64,000 bases of DNA from Bdellovibrionales bacterium (GCA_031370005.1 JANMPT010000003.1:32987-96986); one strand, 5' to 3'. Positions 1-9,102 are shown, counted from the first letter of the stretch. The notes: generated by a model from the sequence alone, not told the origin. Made by a program: numbers and translations.

Positions 1-369
1 CGATGCAGTTGTGGTATCAAAAGATTCTCGAAGGGTGATGAAGCTGGCCTGATGCTTTTTTAACAGATCCCTGATGTCACAAAAATCACGAATATTACGG
101 GATAAACGGGACAGCTCAGTTGCCAAAATCAAATTCACACGGCCGCCCTGGACGTCGGCTAGCATTCTTCTGAACTCAGGCCGATTCATATCTTTGGCAG
201 ATCTACCTTCGTCACAATAGAATTCTACAATGTGACCCCAGTTGGCCTTGAGCTTGTTTTGATATTCCACATACTCAACAATTCGATTTTTCTGCGAGAC
301 CAGGGAGCCATCTACAATTCTGGCCTGCTCTTCCGTCGATACCCGAATGTACACTCCGCAACGCTTCAT
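1..369 (-). CDS. Large serine recombinase (resolvase catalytic domain), 5' part; runs off the window
   Basis: Hand translation from ATG at 369: MKRCGVYIRVSTEEQARIVDGSLVSQ...YCDEGRSAKDMNRPEFRRML...TELSRLSRN. Shows the YxRVST catalytic Ser, DEGxS and SRLSR motifs. Absent from the ORF track because the stop lies outside the window. Confidence 0.93.
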   Translation of the reverse strand, partial: MKRCGVYIRVSTEEQARIVDGSLVSQKNRIVEYVEYQNKLKANWGHIVEFYCDEGRSAKDMNRPEFRRMLADVQGGRVNLILATELSRLSRNIRDFCDIRDLLKKHQASFITLRESFDTTTAS

Positions 370-560
370 GCGACCTCGCTTTCGATAAAGTCCTTTTGAA
401 TGGCCTCAGTTTTATCATGGTCATTGCCCATTTCAAGTAGGCATTTTATGACGCGAGCTACGCGCTCGTTATAATCTTCCTCAGTTATTTTAATCTTCAC
501 GACCGCCACATTTTCTTCGTAAACGTAATCATTTTTAGAACCCATTATTTTAATCCCCAC
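366..560 (-). CDS. Small hypothetical protein translationally coupled to the recombinase (candidate directionality factor)
   Basis: 64 aa. The TGA stop overlaps the recombinase ATG (ATGA at 366-369). GGAGGT lies upstream. Confidence 0.55.
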   Translation of the reverse strand: MGIKIMGSKNDYVYEENVAVVKIKITEEDYNERVARVIKCLLEMGNDHDKTEAIQKDFIESEVA

Positions 561-640: not shown

Positions 641-1630
641 TTATCCACATTTCTCATAACCCCTCTCCGTCACATCTTTATCAGTCCCAGATCCCTCTTC
701 TCCGGCCACAGCTTCTGACCCCAGTCCACCTTTCGTTGGGGGAGTGGGGTCAGAAGCGATCAGTGGCCGGTTCCCAGGTTCTGTTTTTTCTGAATTTATT
801 TGTGATGGAGAGGGGTTATCTGCAATTTCCGCGTTCAAATTTTGGTCGGCTTTGTTGCTCACCCCTTGAGTAGCTTTGTTTCCCTCTGATTTCCACACAT
901 CAAAGGCCAATTCGCCAAATGAGACAAAGCGGCTATCTTTTAAAAAGAAAACTTTTGAGTCTCTTTTATTCTTAAAAAAGTCATTAAGGTGGCTCACAAA
1001 GATATGCTGCCGATCATTTCTAAAACTTTGCTTTTGCCAACCGGCTTTAAGTGCATGGACAAGGCCCTTGTCTTTGATGAAGTACCAAATAATATCAATA
1101 CGGTTTTTGTCAGCGTACTCAGTGAATGTTTCCCGGTATCTCAAGTGGCTTTTCTGAGTAAGCTCTAGCTCCACCGCAATCACCAAAGCTTTGCCATTCA
1201 TCATCTCCGCCATGAGCCCATCTGGGATGATTTTGTTACGGGCTTTTTTATAATCATGTCTGAAAGCTCCTGCCTTCATGACACATTCGGAAGTCCACTC
1301 AAGGCCAAGATTCATTGCCTCAAAGGCAAGTCTCAAGTCATTCAAAAGCACATCATGTTCAATGGTGTTGCGGTTTGAAAATTTAAATGAGTCTTCTAAA
1401 CCGAGAAGTCTTCGGCCGCCAACATCAAGCCGCCAGGTGTTTGTGCCATTCTTTAATGTCACTCCGCGAGAGATAAAACGCCCTTCCTCTAAAAGGCGCA
1501 GCCGCTTCATGACAGTGGTGTGGGCAACACCCTTAAAAAAGAGAGCCCCAATTTGACGAGTCGAGAGGACTCCAAATTTATAAATACTGGCAATAATTTC
1601 TTTGTCCCTTGCCTGTAACTTCATCCCCAA
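641..1630 (-). CDS. Replication-relaxation (Replic_Relax / MOB-C-like, PD-(D/E)xK) protein
   Basis: N-terminal wHTH (RDKEIIASIYKFGVLSTRQI...KRLRLLEEGRFI), then HDVLL, IPDG and AVELELTQKS (D...ExExxxK). Low-complexity C-tail. Confidence 0.82.
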   Translation of the reverse strand: MGMKLQARDKEIIASIYKFGVLSTRQIGALFFKGVAHTTVMKRLRLLEEGRFISRGVTLKNGTNTWRLDVGGRRLLGLEDSFKFSNRNTIEHDVLLNDLRLAFEAMNLGLEWTSECVMKAGAFRHDYKKARNKIIPDGLMAEMMNGKALVIAVELELTQKSHLRYRETFTEYADKNRIDIIWYFIKDKGLVHALKAGWQKQSFRNDRQHIFVSHLNDFFKNKRDSKVFFLKDSRFVSFGELAFDVWKSEGNKATQGVSNKADQNLNAEIADNPSPSQINSEKTEPGNRPLIASDPTPPTKGGLGSEAVAGEEGSGTDKDVTERGYEKCG

Positions 1631-2840: not shown

Positions 2841-2866
2841 GGGTTCGAATCCCTCCCTCTCCGCCA
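2841..2866 (+). mobile_element. tRNA-Ser-like 3' fragment (T-loop to CCA); probable attR
   Basis: GGGTTCGAATCCCTCCCTCTCCGCCA with G discriminator. No matching GGAGAGG 5' acceptor strand or D/anticodon arms upstream. Confidence 0.8.
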
Positions 2867-2960
2867 TTTCCGAAAGTCTGGTTGTGAAAGGCGACCTCAA
2901 TAAGGACGGTTGGGAATAAACCCTCGGGGGAATAAAGAAGAGAGCAAGCCCAAACGGCCG

Positions 2961-5305: not shown

Positions 5306-5548
5306 CTATGCTTTCTTTCTAAAAACGGTCTGCTCAAGCTTTTCTAGACGGTCCTCTACAGAGTCATGGGACTCAATAGATTTTCTGAGAAACCAATTTA
5401 AGAAGGTTTGGTATCCCATTCCTTGTTTCTCGCCCTCAGATTCCAACCATTCAATGACCTCAGCATCAAGCCGAAAAGTCTTGATGACTTTGATGTCTTT
5501 TGCTTTTTTACCCCTTTTTGCCTTTGAGAAATCATATTCATTTTTCAT
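5306..5548 (-). CDS. brnA: BrnA-like antitoxin (RHH/CopG-type)
   Basis: MKNEYDFSKAKRG...TFRLDAEVIEWL...GMGYQTFLNWFLR; directly downstream of brnT. Confidence 0.85.
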   Translation of the reverse strand: MKNEYDFSKAKRGKKAKDIKVIKTFRLDAEVIEWLESEGEKQGMGYQTFLNWFLRKSIESHDSVEDRLEKLEQTVFRKKA

Positions 5549-5551
5549 AAC

Positions 5552-5830
5552 TCACCTCGAAAGATATTGGTTTGACTCGGTTTTGGTGGCTGGTCTTGCA
5601 GAGATAATTCGGACCCGCTCACCCTCAATTTTTTCACAATAAACAACCACTAACAAATTGGCCTTTCGTGATATCCCCAGCCTAAGCCATCTCTCTTCAT
5701 CATGAGAGTGTTCTGGGTCTGGAGTTTCTAGGGCAGAATTATCAAGCCAAATGGTTATTGCCTCAGAAAAGCGAATCCCATGCTTTTTATAGTTGCTGTC
5801 TGCCTTGGTGTCGTCCCACTCAAAGTCCAT
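5552..5830 (-). CDS. brnT: BrnT-family ribonuclease toxin
   Basis: MDFEWDDTKADSNYKKHGIRFSEA...EERW...RIISARPAT. Confidence 0.93.
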   Translation of the reverse strand: MDFEWDDTKADSNYKKHGIRFSEAITIWLDNSALETPDPEHSHDEERWLRLGISRKANLLVVVYCEKIEGERVRIISARPATKTESNQYLSR

Positions 5831-5879
5831 AATTCACTATATTATATTGTTATTACTTTGTAAATACATTTTTAAAATC

Positions 5880-6119
5880 TCATATAGTTGGTTTTAAAGC
5901 GTTTTGCCGCACAAAGGCCTCTGAAGCCCCAATGGCCCTCGCTGTTTTCCCGGAATTCCCATATTTCTTGATAAGCGTCAGCAGGTCGGCCGGCAAAAGG
6001 GCCTTCGGCTCCGCAACAACCTCAAATTCAGCTTGAAACACCGGCTCAGATCGAAATAAAGTGCTCGCAGAGATGGCGAGCGGTTCGTCTACTTCGGTGA
6101 CTTTGGCACCATTTAACAT
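5880..6119 (-). CDS. Small putative HTH protein spanning an att-like junction
   Basis: 79 aa. C-terminal LIKKYGNSGKTARAIGASEAFVRQN looks like an HTH. A related tail, GASQAFVGQN, recurs at 7685-7720. Confidence 0.45.
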   Translation of the reverse strand: MLNGAKVTEVDEPLAISASTLFRSEPVFQAEFEVVAEPKALLPADLLTLIKKYGNSGKTARAIGASEAFVRQNALKPTI

Positions 6120-6180
6120 TTTCAGTCACTTGTACCAATACGGCGAATGGCTTTTTCAATTCAAATTCAATACTTACACC
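6046..6180 (-). pseudogene. Probable C-terminal remnant of a large serine recombinase
   Basis: Hand translation GVSIEFELKKPFAVLVQVTENVKWCQSHRSRRTARHLCEHFISI*. Bases 6135-6176 (42 bp) are identical to 7732-7773. Family assignment is by recalled resemblance only. Confidence 0.6.
6073..6111 (+). repeat. att-like junction, copy 1
   Basis: ATGGCGAGCGGTTCGTCTA-N13-GGCACCA; ungapped match to 6901-6939. Confidence 0.6.
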
Positions 6181-6269
6181 CTTCTAGCCCCTGATATACG
6201 TTGGACATATTTACGACGGCTTTCGAAGTGCCGAGGGGCAAATGGCTAAGAAAGGCAGTGTAATTGATT

Positions 6270-6467
6270 TTAACGCCATTCATAGTGTCCCATGTGAGGT
6301 GTTTTTTTCAAATGTAATTTAAGGCCGTTGATATCTTGCTCAAGTTCAAGAAACTTTCGGTCCGCGAACTCTTGAGACTGCTCAAGGTTGTGAGTGTAAA
6401 GCCAGAATGCAGCCTCTTCTAGCTCAGCTTTGAACTTGTCGGATTCGAGGATTTCAAATGCTTGCAT
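6270..6467 (-). pseudogene. Truncated RelE/ParE-like toxin
   Basis: Adjacent to a Phd antitoxin. Stops just after LKKTPHMG, the P-x-MG midpoint of ParE/RelE toxins. Confidence 0.55.
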
Positions 6468-6764
6468 TTAGCCGACGGCTTTCTTCGTTCTCTTTGCATT
6501 GAGGGCTCGTGTTTTGGCGCGATTCAAAGTGTCCTTTGTCGATTGGTCCGTGACACGACTCACTCGTCCTTGAGCAATATCAACAAGGCCAACAGTCAGC
6601 CCATGCAGCCTAGCAAGATCGAGCTGCATTTTCTCAAAAACGTCGGCATTAAGAAGAACGAAGGCTTCCCCAGATTTTCGAGTGATTTTAACAGGCTCAA
6701 CCCTTGCGGCTTCCATCCACTCTTTCATATTTGATCTGAAGTCATTGGCATTTGTTCTGTCCAT
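6468..6764 (-). CDS. Phd/YefM-family antitoxin
   Basis: NANDFRSNMKEWME...EPVKITRKSGEAFVLLN. AGGAGG RBS before the ATG at 6764. AGTAC-N8-GTACT operator-like palindrome at 6786-6803. Confidence 0.88.
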   Translation of the reverse strand: MDRTNANDFRSNMKEWMEAARVEPVKITRKSGEAFVLLNADVFEKMQLDLARLHGLTVGLVDIAQGRVSRVTDQSTKDTLNRAKTRALNAKRTKKAVG

Positions 6765-6900
6765 AGACACCTCCTATTCTTAAATAGTACACTTAACCGT
6801 ACTGTTAGCCAAGATGCTATTTTATCAGAAAAGTACCGTGTCTTGACTGGTAAAGCGAATACAACGTGATTGCATCCACTGTATAGGATACGTTTTATCC

Positions 6901-6939
6901 ATTGCCAGAGGTTCTTCTAGCCTACGGCCGTGGGCACCA
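6901..6939 (+). repeat. att-like junction, copy 2 (ends like a tRNA-Leu/Phe 3' end)
   Basis: ATTGCCAGAGGTTCTTCTA-N13-GGCACCA. The right end CGGC-CGTGGGC-A-CCA parses as part of a T-stem strand, an acceptor strand and NCCA. Confidence 0.6.
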
Positions 6940-6993
6940 CTGATTTTCGGGTCCACCCCGAAGACATAGGGAACACTTTTCGGTATCTGCGGT

Positions 6994-7305
6994 TTAGCTC
7001 GCCTTAGAAAAACTAAAACCAAACTCAAAGTGACCACCACAAGCGGCCGCTATGCGAGCCAACAGCGGAATAGACGGCACTCGCTTATCAGAACCACCCT
7101 CAAGTCTTGCAATCACACTTTGAGTCGTTCCAATCAGTTTAGCTAATTGAGCCTGAGTTAAGTCAGCTTTCATGCGCGCAGCTCTAACCGCATGCGCGAT
7201 TTCAGTTTTAGATTTTTCTTCTTCAAACTGAATACGAACTTCTTTGTCTTTTAATATTTTTTGAAAAAATGGCTTTGCTGATTTGTATGATTTTTTATTT
7301 TTCAT
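6994..7305 (-). CDS. XRE/HigA-type HTH antitoxin
   Basis: ARMKADLTQAQLAKLIGTTQSVIARLEGG; ATGA overlap with the upstream toxin. Confidence 0.9.
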   Translation of the reverse strand: MKNKKSYKSAKPFFQKILKDKEVRIQFEEEKSKTEIAHAVRAARMKADLTQAQLAKLIGTTQSVIARLEGGSDKRVPSIPLLARIAAACGGHFEFGFSFSKAS

Positions 7306-7637
7306 AATCCTAAAACCTCTTTCATTCTTTTTTCAGCGATTTCAAGATCGCCCGTTGGTGTTTTCTGAGTTTTCTTTTTAAAAGCATGAAGCCAAACCAT
7401 CGTATTTGTTTCAACAACAACATAGGCTATGCGGTAGCTGCCGCTTGGTGTATTAAACTTTACTTCCCAGAGTTTACCGCGAAGCTGCCTAAACTGAACA
7501 CGCGGACAACCTAATCCATATTTTTCAATACCTTCAAAGACATCAGCAAAACGTGCTTGATCTGCTTTTGGCAGATCACTGATAAAATCTTCGATTGGGC
7601 TTCGTCCTGACGACGTTTCGTAAAGAGCTACTTTCAC
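7302..7637 (-). CDS. HigB/RelE (Gp49-like) toxin
   Basis: YETSSGRSPIEDFI...LRGKLWEVK...YRIAY...LHAFKKKTQKTP...AEKRMKE. Confidence 0.92.
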   Translation of the reverse strand: MKVALYETSSGRSPIEDFISDLPKADQARFADVFEGIEKYGLGCPRVQFRQLRGKLWEVKFNTPSGSYRIAYVVVETNTMVWLHAFKKKTQKTPTGDLEIAEKRMKEVLGL

Positions 7638-7672
7638 ACCCTTAATATAGCCAAAAGGCTATATTAAGGCAA
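7638..7672 (-). promoter_or_regulatory. sigma70 promoter with an overlapping 13-bp-arm operator palindrome; probably leaderless
   Basis: TTGCCT-N17-TATATT-N6-GTG start. CCTTAATATAGCC-AAAA-GGCTATATTAAGG at 7640-7669. Confidence 0.75.
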
Positions 7673-7684
7673 GATTTTTTTAAT

Positions 7685-7795
7685 TTAGCTATTCTGCCCT
7701 ACAAAGGCCTGACTAGCGCCGACCGTGTCAGCCAATACGGCGAATGGCTTTTTCAATTCAAATTCAATACTTAAGCCATTTAATATTGGGTTAGG
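7685..7795 (-). pseudogene. Second recombinase C-terminal remnant fused by deletion to the HTH tail
   Basis: NPILNGLSIEFELKKPFAVL|ADTVGASQAFVGQNS*. The segment between KKPFAVL and GASxAFV seen at 5930-6135 is missing here. Confidence 0.6.
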
Positions 7796-8145
7796 AGAGT
7801 ACATTATCACCCTCGACAATTTCTCGGAGCACATTTTGGGCAGCAATGACGTCGGACTCTGGGGTCCAATAGTCTTCGTAGCAGAGACAGTTCGCGCAGT
7901 GCGAATTTGCAAAACAGCTGCTGATACAATCAAGGCATTTTAAGTGGCTATTTTGCTATGAATAGTTGTGAATTTGTATAGACAATAAATATCAAGTAAA
8001 ATCATATGGTTATATTATAACTGTATAATATAACATTCAAAATATCGTTAATTGGCCATTATATTAGTCATTATTTAGTTAGCTTATTTTGATGTGAATA
8101 ATATAGTTGCCAAAACGCCAGTAATTGGATACTATATTATCCATT

Positions 8146-8484
8146 ATGGGAAAGAAGACAGCTACACAGACACCAAAGCTAATAGCCCTTCTTAAAGCAC
8201 TGGGTGAAAACATCCACCTAGCACGTCGTCGTCGTCGCCTCTCGTCCACAATGCTTGCTGAAAGGGCCGGAATGACTCGAATGACCTTGCGGGCAGTTGA
8301 AAGAGGCGAGCCAACAGCAAGCCTTGGTGCGTATGCAAATGTACTTTTTAGCCTCGGACTTGAAAAAGATCTGTCGACTGTTGCGAAAGACGATGAGCTG
8401 GGTCGAAGACTTCAGGATGCAAGCTTAGTCAGAAGCAAAAAAACTAAGTCAAAAAAAGATCCCTCAAAAACAGAGCTAGAGTAA
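8146..8484 (+). CDS. HipB-like XRE antitoxin
   Basis: LGENIHLARRRRRLS...LAERAGMTRMTLRAVERGEP...LGRRLQDA; directly upstream of a hipA fragment. Confidence 0.88.
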   Translation: MGKKTATQTPKLIALLKALGENIHLARRRRRLSSTMLAERAGMTRMTLRAVERGEPTASLGAYANVLFSLGLEKDLSTVAKDDELGRRLQDASLVRSKKTKSKKDPSKTELE

Positions 8485-8488
8485 AATT

Positions 8489-8755
8489 ATGGGAAAGAGC
8501 AAGACTGGGCAAAAAATAGTTTATATTTATGCCAATTGGGAGACGCTAGAAACTCCTCAGCTTACGGGATCTCTATTTGTAACCCTCTCACGCGGTAAAG
8601 AAATTTTTTCATTTGAGTATGATCCAAAATGGCTGAAGTCAAATTACGCCCACGATCTTGATCCAAATTTAAAATTTTTTGGCGGTCCTCAGTATCCTAA
8701 ATCCGATCACGCAAACTTTGGTCTTTTTCTTGATTCGTCTCCAGATCGTTGGGGG
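8489..8755 (+). pseudogene. hipA: Truncated HipA toxin (N-terminal coupling domain only)
   Basis: GKEIFSFEYDPKWL...LDPNL...FGLFLDSSPDRWG. Homology ends here and the frame then reads through the tRNA. The kinase domain is missing. Confidence 0.85.
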
Positions 8756-8763
8756 TTGATAAA

Positions 8764-8838
8764 TGGTGGACCCAACCAGAGTCGAACTGGTGACTTATCC
8801 ATGCCATGGACATATAATCCCAACTTCACCATGGGCCC
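8764..8838 (-). tRNA. tRNA-Ala(GGC)
   Basis: GGGCCCA TG GTGA AGTTGGGA TTAT A TGTCC ATGGCAT GGATA AGTC ACCAG TTCGACT CTGGT TGGGTCC A CCA. Full 75-nt cloverleaf with G3:U70 and encoded CCA. Confidence 0.93.
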
Positions 8839-9102
8839 GTTTTTCATTCTACCTATAGTCACTCCGCAGACGACTAACAATGGTTTTAATATAGACTCTT
8901 GCAGCGGCAACATACGTTATAACTATCGCCCCTAGCGCTCCGAAAAAAGTCAAAACTACCTGCACCAAAAATGTACTCAATATTCAGCAAAACCTTGGCG
9001 TAGATGTCGCGCGCGCGAGTAAATAGGACTTCCCTTTCAAAAAAATGAGTCAACTGTCTGGCTTAGCTTGCTCCTTCAGAGGTGAAGAGGTAGATTTACC
9101 TG

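Follow-up and report, generated by a model that had tools for sequence, protein, structure and literature searches.

Organization of the locus

The 64,000-nucleotide stretch analysed here (hereafter the window) corresponds to positions 32987-96986 of contig C105 in the 3.2-Mb assembly of a Bdellovibrionales bacterium, and the toxin-antitoxin (TA) block at its positions 5306-8763 is the subject of this work. The block belongs to an island located between two convergent tRNA genes, tRNA-Leu(CAG), 1.3 kb to the left of the window, and tRNA-Ala(GGC) at 8764-8838. The initial annotation had listed four TA pairs here and had considered them an integron-like array of cassettes, left by large serine recombinase (LSR) elements that integrated in tandem and then lost their bodies. 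In the reading preferred here, which is held with good confidence, the block is the outer part of an island grown by repeated insertion of LSR elements at the 3' end of tRNA-Leu(CAG), deletions having then likely fused the older elements into hybrids that kept their TA genes. The main features are the following, with positions counted in the window unless a contig is named, LSR families denoted A to C, and contigs, loci and genomes designated by C, L and G plus a number.

C105 31594-31679: tRNA-Leu(CAG), anchor of the array; its 3' end, read antisense, is the 3' end of the LSR gene (attL)
1..369, minus strand: N-terminal 123 aa, within the window, of the family-A LSR; the full gene (C105 33355-31658) is intact and encodes 565 aa
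5306..5830, minus strand: BrnT-BrnA pair (PF04365 and PF14384 above cut-off), last cargo of element A
5880..6110, minus strand: tail 1, a start-less 76-codon frame ending in GASEAFVRQN, in frame with the family-A LSR across attP
6082..6111, minus strand: attR of element A, with a TGGTGC core and a P' arm AGTA..GAACC of family-A type
6106..6180, minus strand: C-terminal relic 1 of a family-C LSR, with one 42-bp copy; the TGG of the core serves as its final W codon
6270..6770, minus strand: Phd antitoxin (PF02604) and a 65-aa, apparently truncated partner open reading frame (ORF)
6876..6939, minus strand: second attR junction, with a TGGTGC core, a GCT..GAACC arm of family-B type and codons 1-21 of tail 2
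6940..6975, minus strand: IS481-like element end, not an LSR arm
6994..7637, minus strand: HigB (Gp49)-HigA pair
7685..7731, minus strand: last helix of a tail (ASQAFVGQNS), 84% identical to a copy on contig C120 and fused by deletion to relic 2
7732..7810, minus strand: C-terminal relic 2 of a family-C LSR, with the second 42-bp copy; 81.6% over 76 nt to locus L069
8125..8757, plus strand: HipB-like helix-turn-helix (HTH) gene and 90-codon HipA-like N-terminal fragment, running into the 3' end of tRNA-Ala
8764..8838, minus strand: tRNA-Ala(GGC), which closes the island; a second copy is present in the genome

The four TA pairs were recovered in part. BrnT, BrnA, Phd/YefM, Gp49 and HTH_3 were found above the Pfam cut-offs, while the HipA fragment remained below (E=0.044 on Couple_hipA). 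The 65-aa ORF (6270-6467) matched no Pfam or NCBIfam family, so that its RelE/ParE label rests on its place behind Phd; Phd partners in relatives have 116-123 aa.

An intact LSR element beside tRNA-Leu

The LSR next to tRNA-Leu(CAG) carries the Resolvase (PF00239), Recombinase (PF07508) and Zn_ribbon_recom (PF13408) domains, all above cut-off in one ORF of 565 aa, and its last six codons come from the antisense strand of the tRNA 3' end. The arm at the BrnTA junction pairs with this intact LSR and closes an element, termed element A, of 7,418 bp from the tRNA to position 6111, which includes the LSR, a 64-aa gene, a relaxase-like gene, other cargo, BrnTA and tail 1. BrnTA therefore still has its body. 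Single units of 3.4-5.2 kb with one family-A LSR and one tail 1 were found in five relatives (L044, L046, L047, L049 and L054), and in two of the five a TA pair adjoins the tail.

Both junctions of the block (6111 and 6939) contain TGGTGC, the antisense of the GCACCA at the tRNA-Leu 3' end, and between the two tRNA genes plus-strand GCACCA is present only at these junctions, besides the tRNA's own copy. The 39-bp junctions described initially (6073-6111 and 6901-6939) are real, with 25 of 39 positions matching. Among 31 copies of tail 1 the homology begins sharply at TGGTGC, the DNA upstream being unrelated or an LSR end. GAAC is placed at 21-24 from the core centre on the LSR-side arm of 10 of 11 LSR ends (the window's own LSR has GAGC) and on the tail-side arm of the 5/5 shown, and at 16-19 from the core centre in the tRNA (11/11). 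In serine integrases the zinc-ribbon motif of attB is shifted by 5 bp towards the centre relative to that of attP (PMC3783163). The junction arms display this same 5-bp offset, in attachment (att) sites of about 50 bp with a short core, as is characteristic of serine integrases, and their symmetry would place the crossover at the GC of the core, inside the LSR gene. The inner arm motif pairs the ends by family, AGTA joining family A with tail 1 and GCT joining family B with tail 2 (in four of five family-B arms). A junction pattern gave 4 matches in the 3.2-Mb genome (two here, one on C114 and one, probably by chance, on C81) against about 0.02 expected, an excess that overstates the significance because the pattern was built after the fact from these sites and those of relatives.

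LSR relics and decayed units

The 42-bp exact repeat has been confirmed, positions 6135-6176 being identical to 7732-7773 over exactly 42 bp. Matches to a 46-aa KPF..W peptide, taken from a relative, were obtained in 50 of 151 family genomes, often at the end of a 500-660-codon frame that runs into a tRNA; 18 of these ORFs exceed 300 aa, and among the 11 submitted Resolvase was found in all and Recombinase in 10. When a profile of these ORF ends was built, both window relics were its top two matches in the genome (E=8.8e-5 for relic 1). Relic 1 is 84% identical over 75 nt to L071, and in relic 2 weak homology continues to about 7927. A protein database search with the 46-aa peptide yielded nothing (6 candidates). 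On these sequence comparisons the repeat, which encodes KKPFAVL..W, is the C-terminus of an LSR family, family C, other than family A of the window LSR, and the peptide initially proposed as an LSR remnant is thus identified. Families A and C differ in the frame in which they read the core. For this reason family-C LSRs were rejected, tentatively, as owners of tails 1 and 2; their candidate far junctions, recognized by pattern in 4 of 12 regions (L159, L160, L164 and L165), give W-frame ORFs of only 17-35 aa, which are not HTH tails. The assembly contains no intact family-B or family-C LSR.

What had been described as one recurring scaffold before the TA pairs has at least four sources: the family-C C-terminus, the family-A tail, the family-B tail and the IS481-like end. 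Unit 2 (6112-6939) consists of a family-C end, the short toxin-like ORF, Phd and the start of tail 2 (family B); its junction at 6876..6939 is 95% identical over 64 nt to L042, where tail 2 has 94 aa, and the HTH part is lost here. Unit 3 comprises the IS481-like end, HigBA and the last helix of a tail fused to the second family-C relic; homologues of HigBA (74%) are directly behind tail 1 in two relatives. The GASxAFVxQN motif was indeed found on the minus strand at about 5900 and about 7700. Judged by their ends, which come from different element types and form no matched pair, the Phd and HigBA units appear to be deletion hybrids and not the proposed 'att + TA' cassettes, since in each the left end belongs to one element type and the right end to a different one; they are probably not mobile on their own. 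No homologue of 6170-6300, 6770-6880 or 7790-8125 was found among the loci compared.

The motif at 6940-6975 abuts tRNA 3' ends in 7/7 loci and follows a 393-395-aa rve/IS481 transposase in two of them, and its assignment to an IS481-like end was preferred to a fourth LSR family or a native tRNA trailer, which were both rejected. In these seven loci, from six genomes (L146, L147, L151-L154 and L156), it is placed 8-14 bases past the 3' end of tRNA-Gln, -Val, -Cys, -Leu or -His, a count biased by a search pattern that demanded a following TGG; it may mark a tRNA-targeting insertion sequence.

The HipB/HipA' genes carry none of the scaffold pieces and are on the other strand; without a core or a tail, they were ruled out as a member of the LSR array and are probably a separate relic. 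An ABC-transporter operon, and not tRNA-Ala, is located upstream of hisS in five of five genomes of the same genus (7-20 kb read), so that the part with HipBA' and tRNA-Ala probably derives from a separate event. Near-identical tRNA-Ala(GGC) genes are present at window positions 8758-8852 and on contig C50.

At the orthologous tRNA-Leu(CAG), different arrays were found in relatives: a frameshifted family-B LSR, tail 2 and a family-C relic in G071, of the same genus, and an 8-kb family-B-like element in G038. L042 is a three-element stack at another tRNA-Leu. Taken together, the LSR C-terminus, the junction excess and the variable tRNA site support the tandem LSR integration with loss of bodies proposed initially, with the exception of BrnTA, which retains its 7.4-kb element; none of the three outcomes named initially as refuting it was observed. 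Each new element inserted at tRNA-Leu(CAG) would push the older ones outward. The locus is most likely a product of tandem accretion and decay, not an integron-like cassette system.

Three further loci of this genome are of note. On contig C120 (L004:8426-9510), exact 88-bp direct repeats, corresponding to the 3' end of a UbiE-like methyltransferase gene (named by sequence motifs), flank a 1-kb unit with a tail end and HigBA and no recombinase. Contig C114 (L002:5419-6373) contains a second tail-1 junction of the genome, with a stop and a frameshift, followed by a ribbon-helix-helix-PIN pair, and a 29-codon family-A LSR scrap adjoins tRNA-Pro 3.6 kb from this junction. On contig C5 (L171:2835-3730), about 12 codons of a family-A LSR arm come after tRNA-Leu(TAG), then a DUF4160-type two-gene pair and the contig end, in what appears to be a second decayed array.

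A probable coding tail across attP

Tail 1 was detected in 35 of 151 family genomes and in 25 of 301 genomes of the phylum sample. In sets restricted to open frames of similar protein sequence, from which three loci that were partial or frameshifted were left out together with the broken C114 copy, nonsynonymous (pN) and synonymous (pS) divergences were 0.32 versus 0.69 for tail 1, with pN<pS in 465/465 pairs, and 0.42 versus 0.73 for tail 2, and the invariant residues of tail 1 use many synonymous codons. Indels between the core and the HTH anchor keep the frame in 26/26 and 20/20 scorable copies, over 3 and 4 indel lengths. No start codon is conserved in tail 1, and an independent start was rejected because ATG is present in only 1 of 31 copies. 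The distance from the LSR ATG to the core is 1,676 nt, so that the LSR enters the core in the frame of the tail and its product would lengthen from 565 to about 635 aa on excision. Public data contain natural proteins in which an LSR and a tail are joined in frame (P0001, P0005, P0007 and P0008), probably derived from tandem arrays. The substitution and indel patterns indicate that purifying selection acts on tail 1, a frame with no start of its own that is in register with the LSR over attP.

No Pfam family matched either tail. The predicted fold of tail 1 is a beta-strand plus a three-helix HTH, and tail 2 also models as a three-helix HTH; when compared directly, the tails gave a probability of 11% (E=0.0027), with the same layout, homology not being established. 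The complex predicted for LSR residues 170-515 and tail 1 reached a score of 0.77 (best of 3 controls, 0.00), with contacts agreeing in at least 81% and a partner pLDDT (predicted local distance difference test) of at least 69. The mark applied was reached by 116/157 solved and 2/215 mismatched pairs, counts that are only rough with the alignments used here. In this model, LSR strand 503-509 is paired with residues 25-32 of the tail, other contacts being at 346-380, and tail 1 is predicted to dock on the zinc-ribbon domain beside the coiled coil, adding a beta-strand. Most directionality factors add a strand to the zinc-ribbon domain near the coiled coil, and LSR C-terminal extensions may block the directionality-factor site (PMC12286644).

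Excision of element A would swap the last 6 LSR codons, derived from the tRNA, for the 76-codon tail. The tailed LSR made from the circle would favour integration, its tail blocking the factor site, and the shortened LSR of the integrated element would accept a factor, perhaps the 64-aa protein, and excise. That the tail occupies the directionality-factor site and thereby sets direction is offered tentatively, on the basis of the structural model, and we give it somewhat less than an even chance.

Other features of element A

366..560, minus strand: 64-aa gene, overlapping the LSR start; counterparts precede family-A and family-B LSRs of relatives
641..1630, minus strand: Replic_Relax (MobC-type) protein, PF13814 E=1.4e-8; NF041423 below cut-off
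2841..2869, plus strand: 29-bp copy of a tRNA-Ser 3' end, 96.6% identical to tRNA-Ser(TGA) on contig C3

The 64-aa gene has no Pfam or NCBIfam match and, by its position, is a candidate directionality factor. The Replic_Relax protein may be cargo or a mobilization gene of element A. The tRNA-Ser copy is probably an att relic of another element inside element A. Palindromic and inverted repeats (2358-2377, 2580-2669 and 2707-2726) are located in intergenic DNA upstream of the relaxase-like operon; the motif at 2583-2613 was also found in family-A and family-B elements of relatives and is possibly an operator or transfer origin.

Cargo of the elements in relatives

Downstream sequence was available for 30 of 31 tail-1 sites, 13 of them with a Pfam-supported TA gene beside the tail, 6 with a TA-like small gene or pair that lacks a TA-family match and 11 with neither, and for 22 of 24 tail-2 sites, 6 of them with a Pfam TA match (raw counts in both cases). 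TA genes are thus frequent but not obligatory cargo, and they adjoin the tail because that place is the cargo slot of the element. TA pairs may outlast the rest of an element, their loss being costly.

Units of 0.8-1.4 kb without an LSR, formed by an arm, a two-gene pair and an intact tail, were found in relatives and not in this window. In six of them (0.8-1.0 kb; L038, L039, L040 and L143, from four genomes and three genera) a left arm of about 60 bp is common and the cargo differs; the common arm carries a GTATC..GATAC palindrome. The L051 unit, of 1,361 bp, has matched attL and attR sites, both with family-A arms. In three genomes (L038:9225-10255, L039:2997-4020 and L051:7878-8532) the TA slot is filled by two genes of about 95 and 125 aa; without a Pfam match, this pair is a candidate undescribed TA system.

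Alternative explanations

It is highly improbable that the repeats arose by chance or by local duplication in an AT-rich graveyard of TA genes and have nothing to do with site-specific recombination. The exact 42-bp identity between relics with differing flanks could reflect a recent duplication or gene conversion, and HipBA' and the tRNA-Ala copy need a separate event, but this explanation is contradicted by the LSR homology, the cores at tRNA ends, the geometry of the att arms and the recurrence in dozens of genomes. A true integron-like system, in which the att+TA units would be purpose-built non-autonomous cassettes that an LSR excises and re-inserts in trans, was judged improbable, though far less so. 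It agrees with the LSR-less units of relatives, the strongest argument in its favour, which include L051 with both family-A arms and occur two in tandem in each of G011 and G130, with the left arm shared by six units of different cargo, and with the eight or more TA families found in the slot. The window itself argues against it, its Phd and HigBA units showing unmatched ends, truncated tails and a short toxin ORF. In addition, the assembly lacks an intact family-B or family-C LSR, the common left arm has no GGTTC at the LSR-arm position, and a TA-like pair is absent from 11/30 tail-1 sites, with a TA match in only 6/22 tail-2 sites. No integron integrase was detected either (TIGR02249, 0/11 matches over cut-off, none on contig C105). 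Integrons with TA cassettes grow from a single fixed site as arrays whose units are short and in several cases carry TA pairs, and this locus is like them in these respects; unlike integrons, it has junctions that match tRNA ends and LSR arms, which points to double-stranded LSR att sites in place of attC, and its units derive from autonomous elements.

A third explanation keeps the accretion and decay and gives the tail a transcriptional role, the LSR-HTH protein made from the circle, or a separate tail, repressing the LSR or TA promoter with no effect on direction. Both tails model as three-helix HTHs with best matches that are Cro-, DeoR- or LysR-like, the most conserved residues fall in the last helix, and TA operons are often just beyond. 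Against it, a conserved start codon is missing (ATG 1/31), the predicted LSR contact involves tail residues 23-47, upstream of the recognition helix, and the orientation of the TA genes relative to the tail varies. We regard it as somewhat unlikely; it is compatible with LSR accretion and decay at tRNA-Leu, competing only with the last step, the control of direction.

Several observations weigh against the accretion reading and its coding tail. The genomes compared are relatives of other species, none of the same species. Because similarity and an open frame were required of the tails, the selection figures carry a bias, and the pairs compared are not independent; stops are present in 6 of 52 tail-1 matches, and the exact core is absent in 5 of 31 tail-1 copies, two with frame-shifting extra bases. 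Neither tail had a Foldseek match at E<=0.001, most best rows being HTH DNA-binding domains. Because the docked chains are the two parts of one split gene, resemblance to full-length LSRs may account for the pass. Intact tails are also found in units that lack an LSR and whose own arm is interrupted by stops in the frame of the tail, and the fusion model explains these only by recent origin. Finally, no excision joint was found in the assembled contigs of the only sequencing run that contains this DNA, which is probably the source of the assembly, and this search is hence uninformative.

Relation to known systems and significance

The tandem ssrA-specific islands of Dehalococcoides are associated with the serine recombinase DsiB, whose gene overlaps the att site (McMurdie et al. 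2011, PMC3146451), and the authors suggested that a complete enzyme may be encoded only by the circle or when another island lies next to the gene. The parallels described there are close: tandem islands behind one RNA gene, an LSR of about 540 aa, CcrB-like, that overlaps attL at its 3' end, and 15 islands without an integration module, comparable to the recombinase-less units found here (PMC3146451). Unlike the 20-bp ssrA repeat of those islands, the target here is tRNA-Leu with a 6-bp core, and the elements are of 3.4-7.4 kb, without DsiA, ParB or Mom, and often with TA cargo (PMC3146451). Our analysis assigns the missing 3' part to an HTH tail apparently under selection, a domain that the Dehalococcoides account, in the parts considered, does not name (PMC3146451).

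The process also corresponds to the accretion of integrative elements (integrative and conjugative, ICEs; integrative and mobilizable, IMEs; cis-mobilizable, CIMEs) by integration, decay to a recombinase-less unit and new integration at the target, TA genes being common IME cargo (PMC5704250). In the island, accordingly arranged, the intact element A is beside the tRNA and the LSR relics are further out. CIMEs keep matched attL and attR sites, which the decayed units of the window do not and the L051 unit of a relative does; unlike CIMEs, three LSR families and an IS481-like end share the site here (PMC5704250). With TA cargo optional and the process known from CIME accretion and the Dehalococcoides islands, the term 'integron-like' was an overstatement.

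An attP inside the integrase gene is known from myxophage Mx8 IntP, whose C-terminus is altered by integration as here (PMC6070905), and from the archaeal SSV-type 'suicidal' integrases (PMC7253208). Those of Mx8 and SSV are tyrosine integrases, whereas the serine integrase studied here has all three canonical domains in the integrated state, and excision would add a tail to it. The tycheposons of Prochlorococcus are alike in their repeated tRNA integration, with fragmented integrases pushed outward; 910 of the 937 use tyrosine recombinases and leave partial tRNA repeats, while the core here has only 6 bp (bioRxiv 10.1101/2020.12.28.424599). A literature search, with most subscription journals and supplements outside its scope, found no LSR with attP in its own gene plus an HTH tail and no TA cassette array built by LSRs.

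The accumulation of TA genes is in itself ordinary, since tandem accretion and decay at tRNA genes has already been published, serine recombinases included. The tail bears on the question of how direction is controlled in LSRs with C-terminal extensions (PMC12286644), and integrated copies mined for genome-engineering tools may yield LSRs in the shortened form. It also gives a testable form to the 2011 suggestion that some LSRs are complete only on the circle. For the Bdellovibrio-like bacteria, the broadest picture, which we consider unlikely as a whole, would be that they carry minimal LSR islands whose direction is set by gain and loss of the tail, together with matched-arm TA derivatives moved in trans, so that tRNA-Leu would serve as a cassette platform free of IntI.

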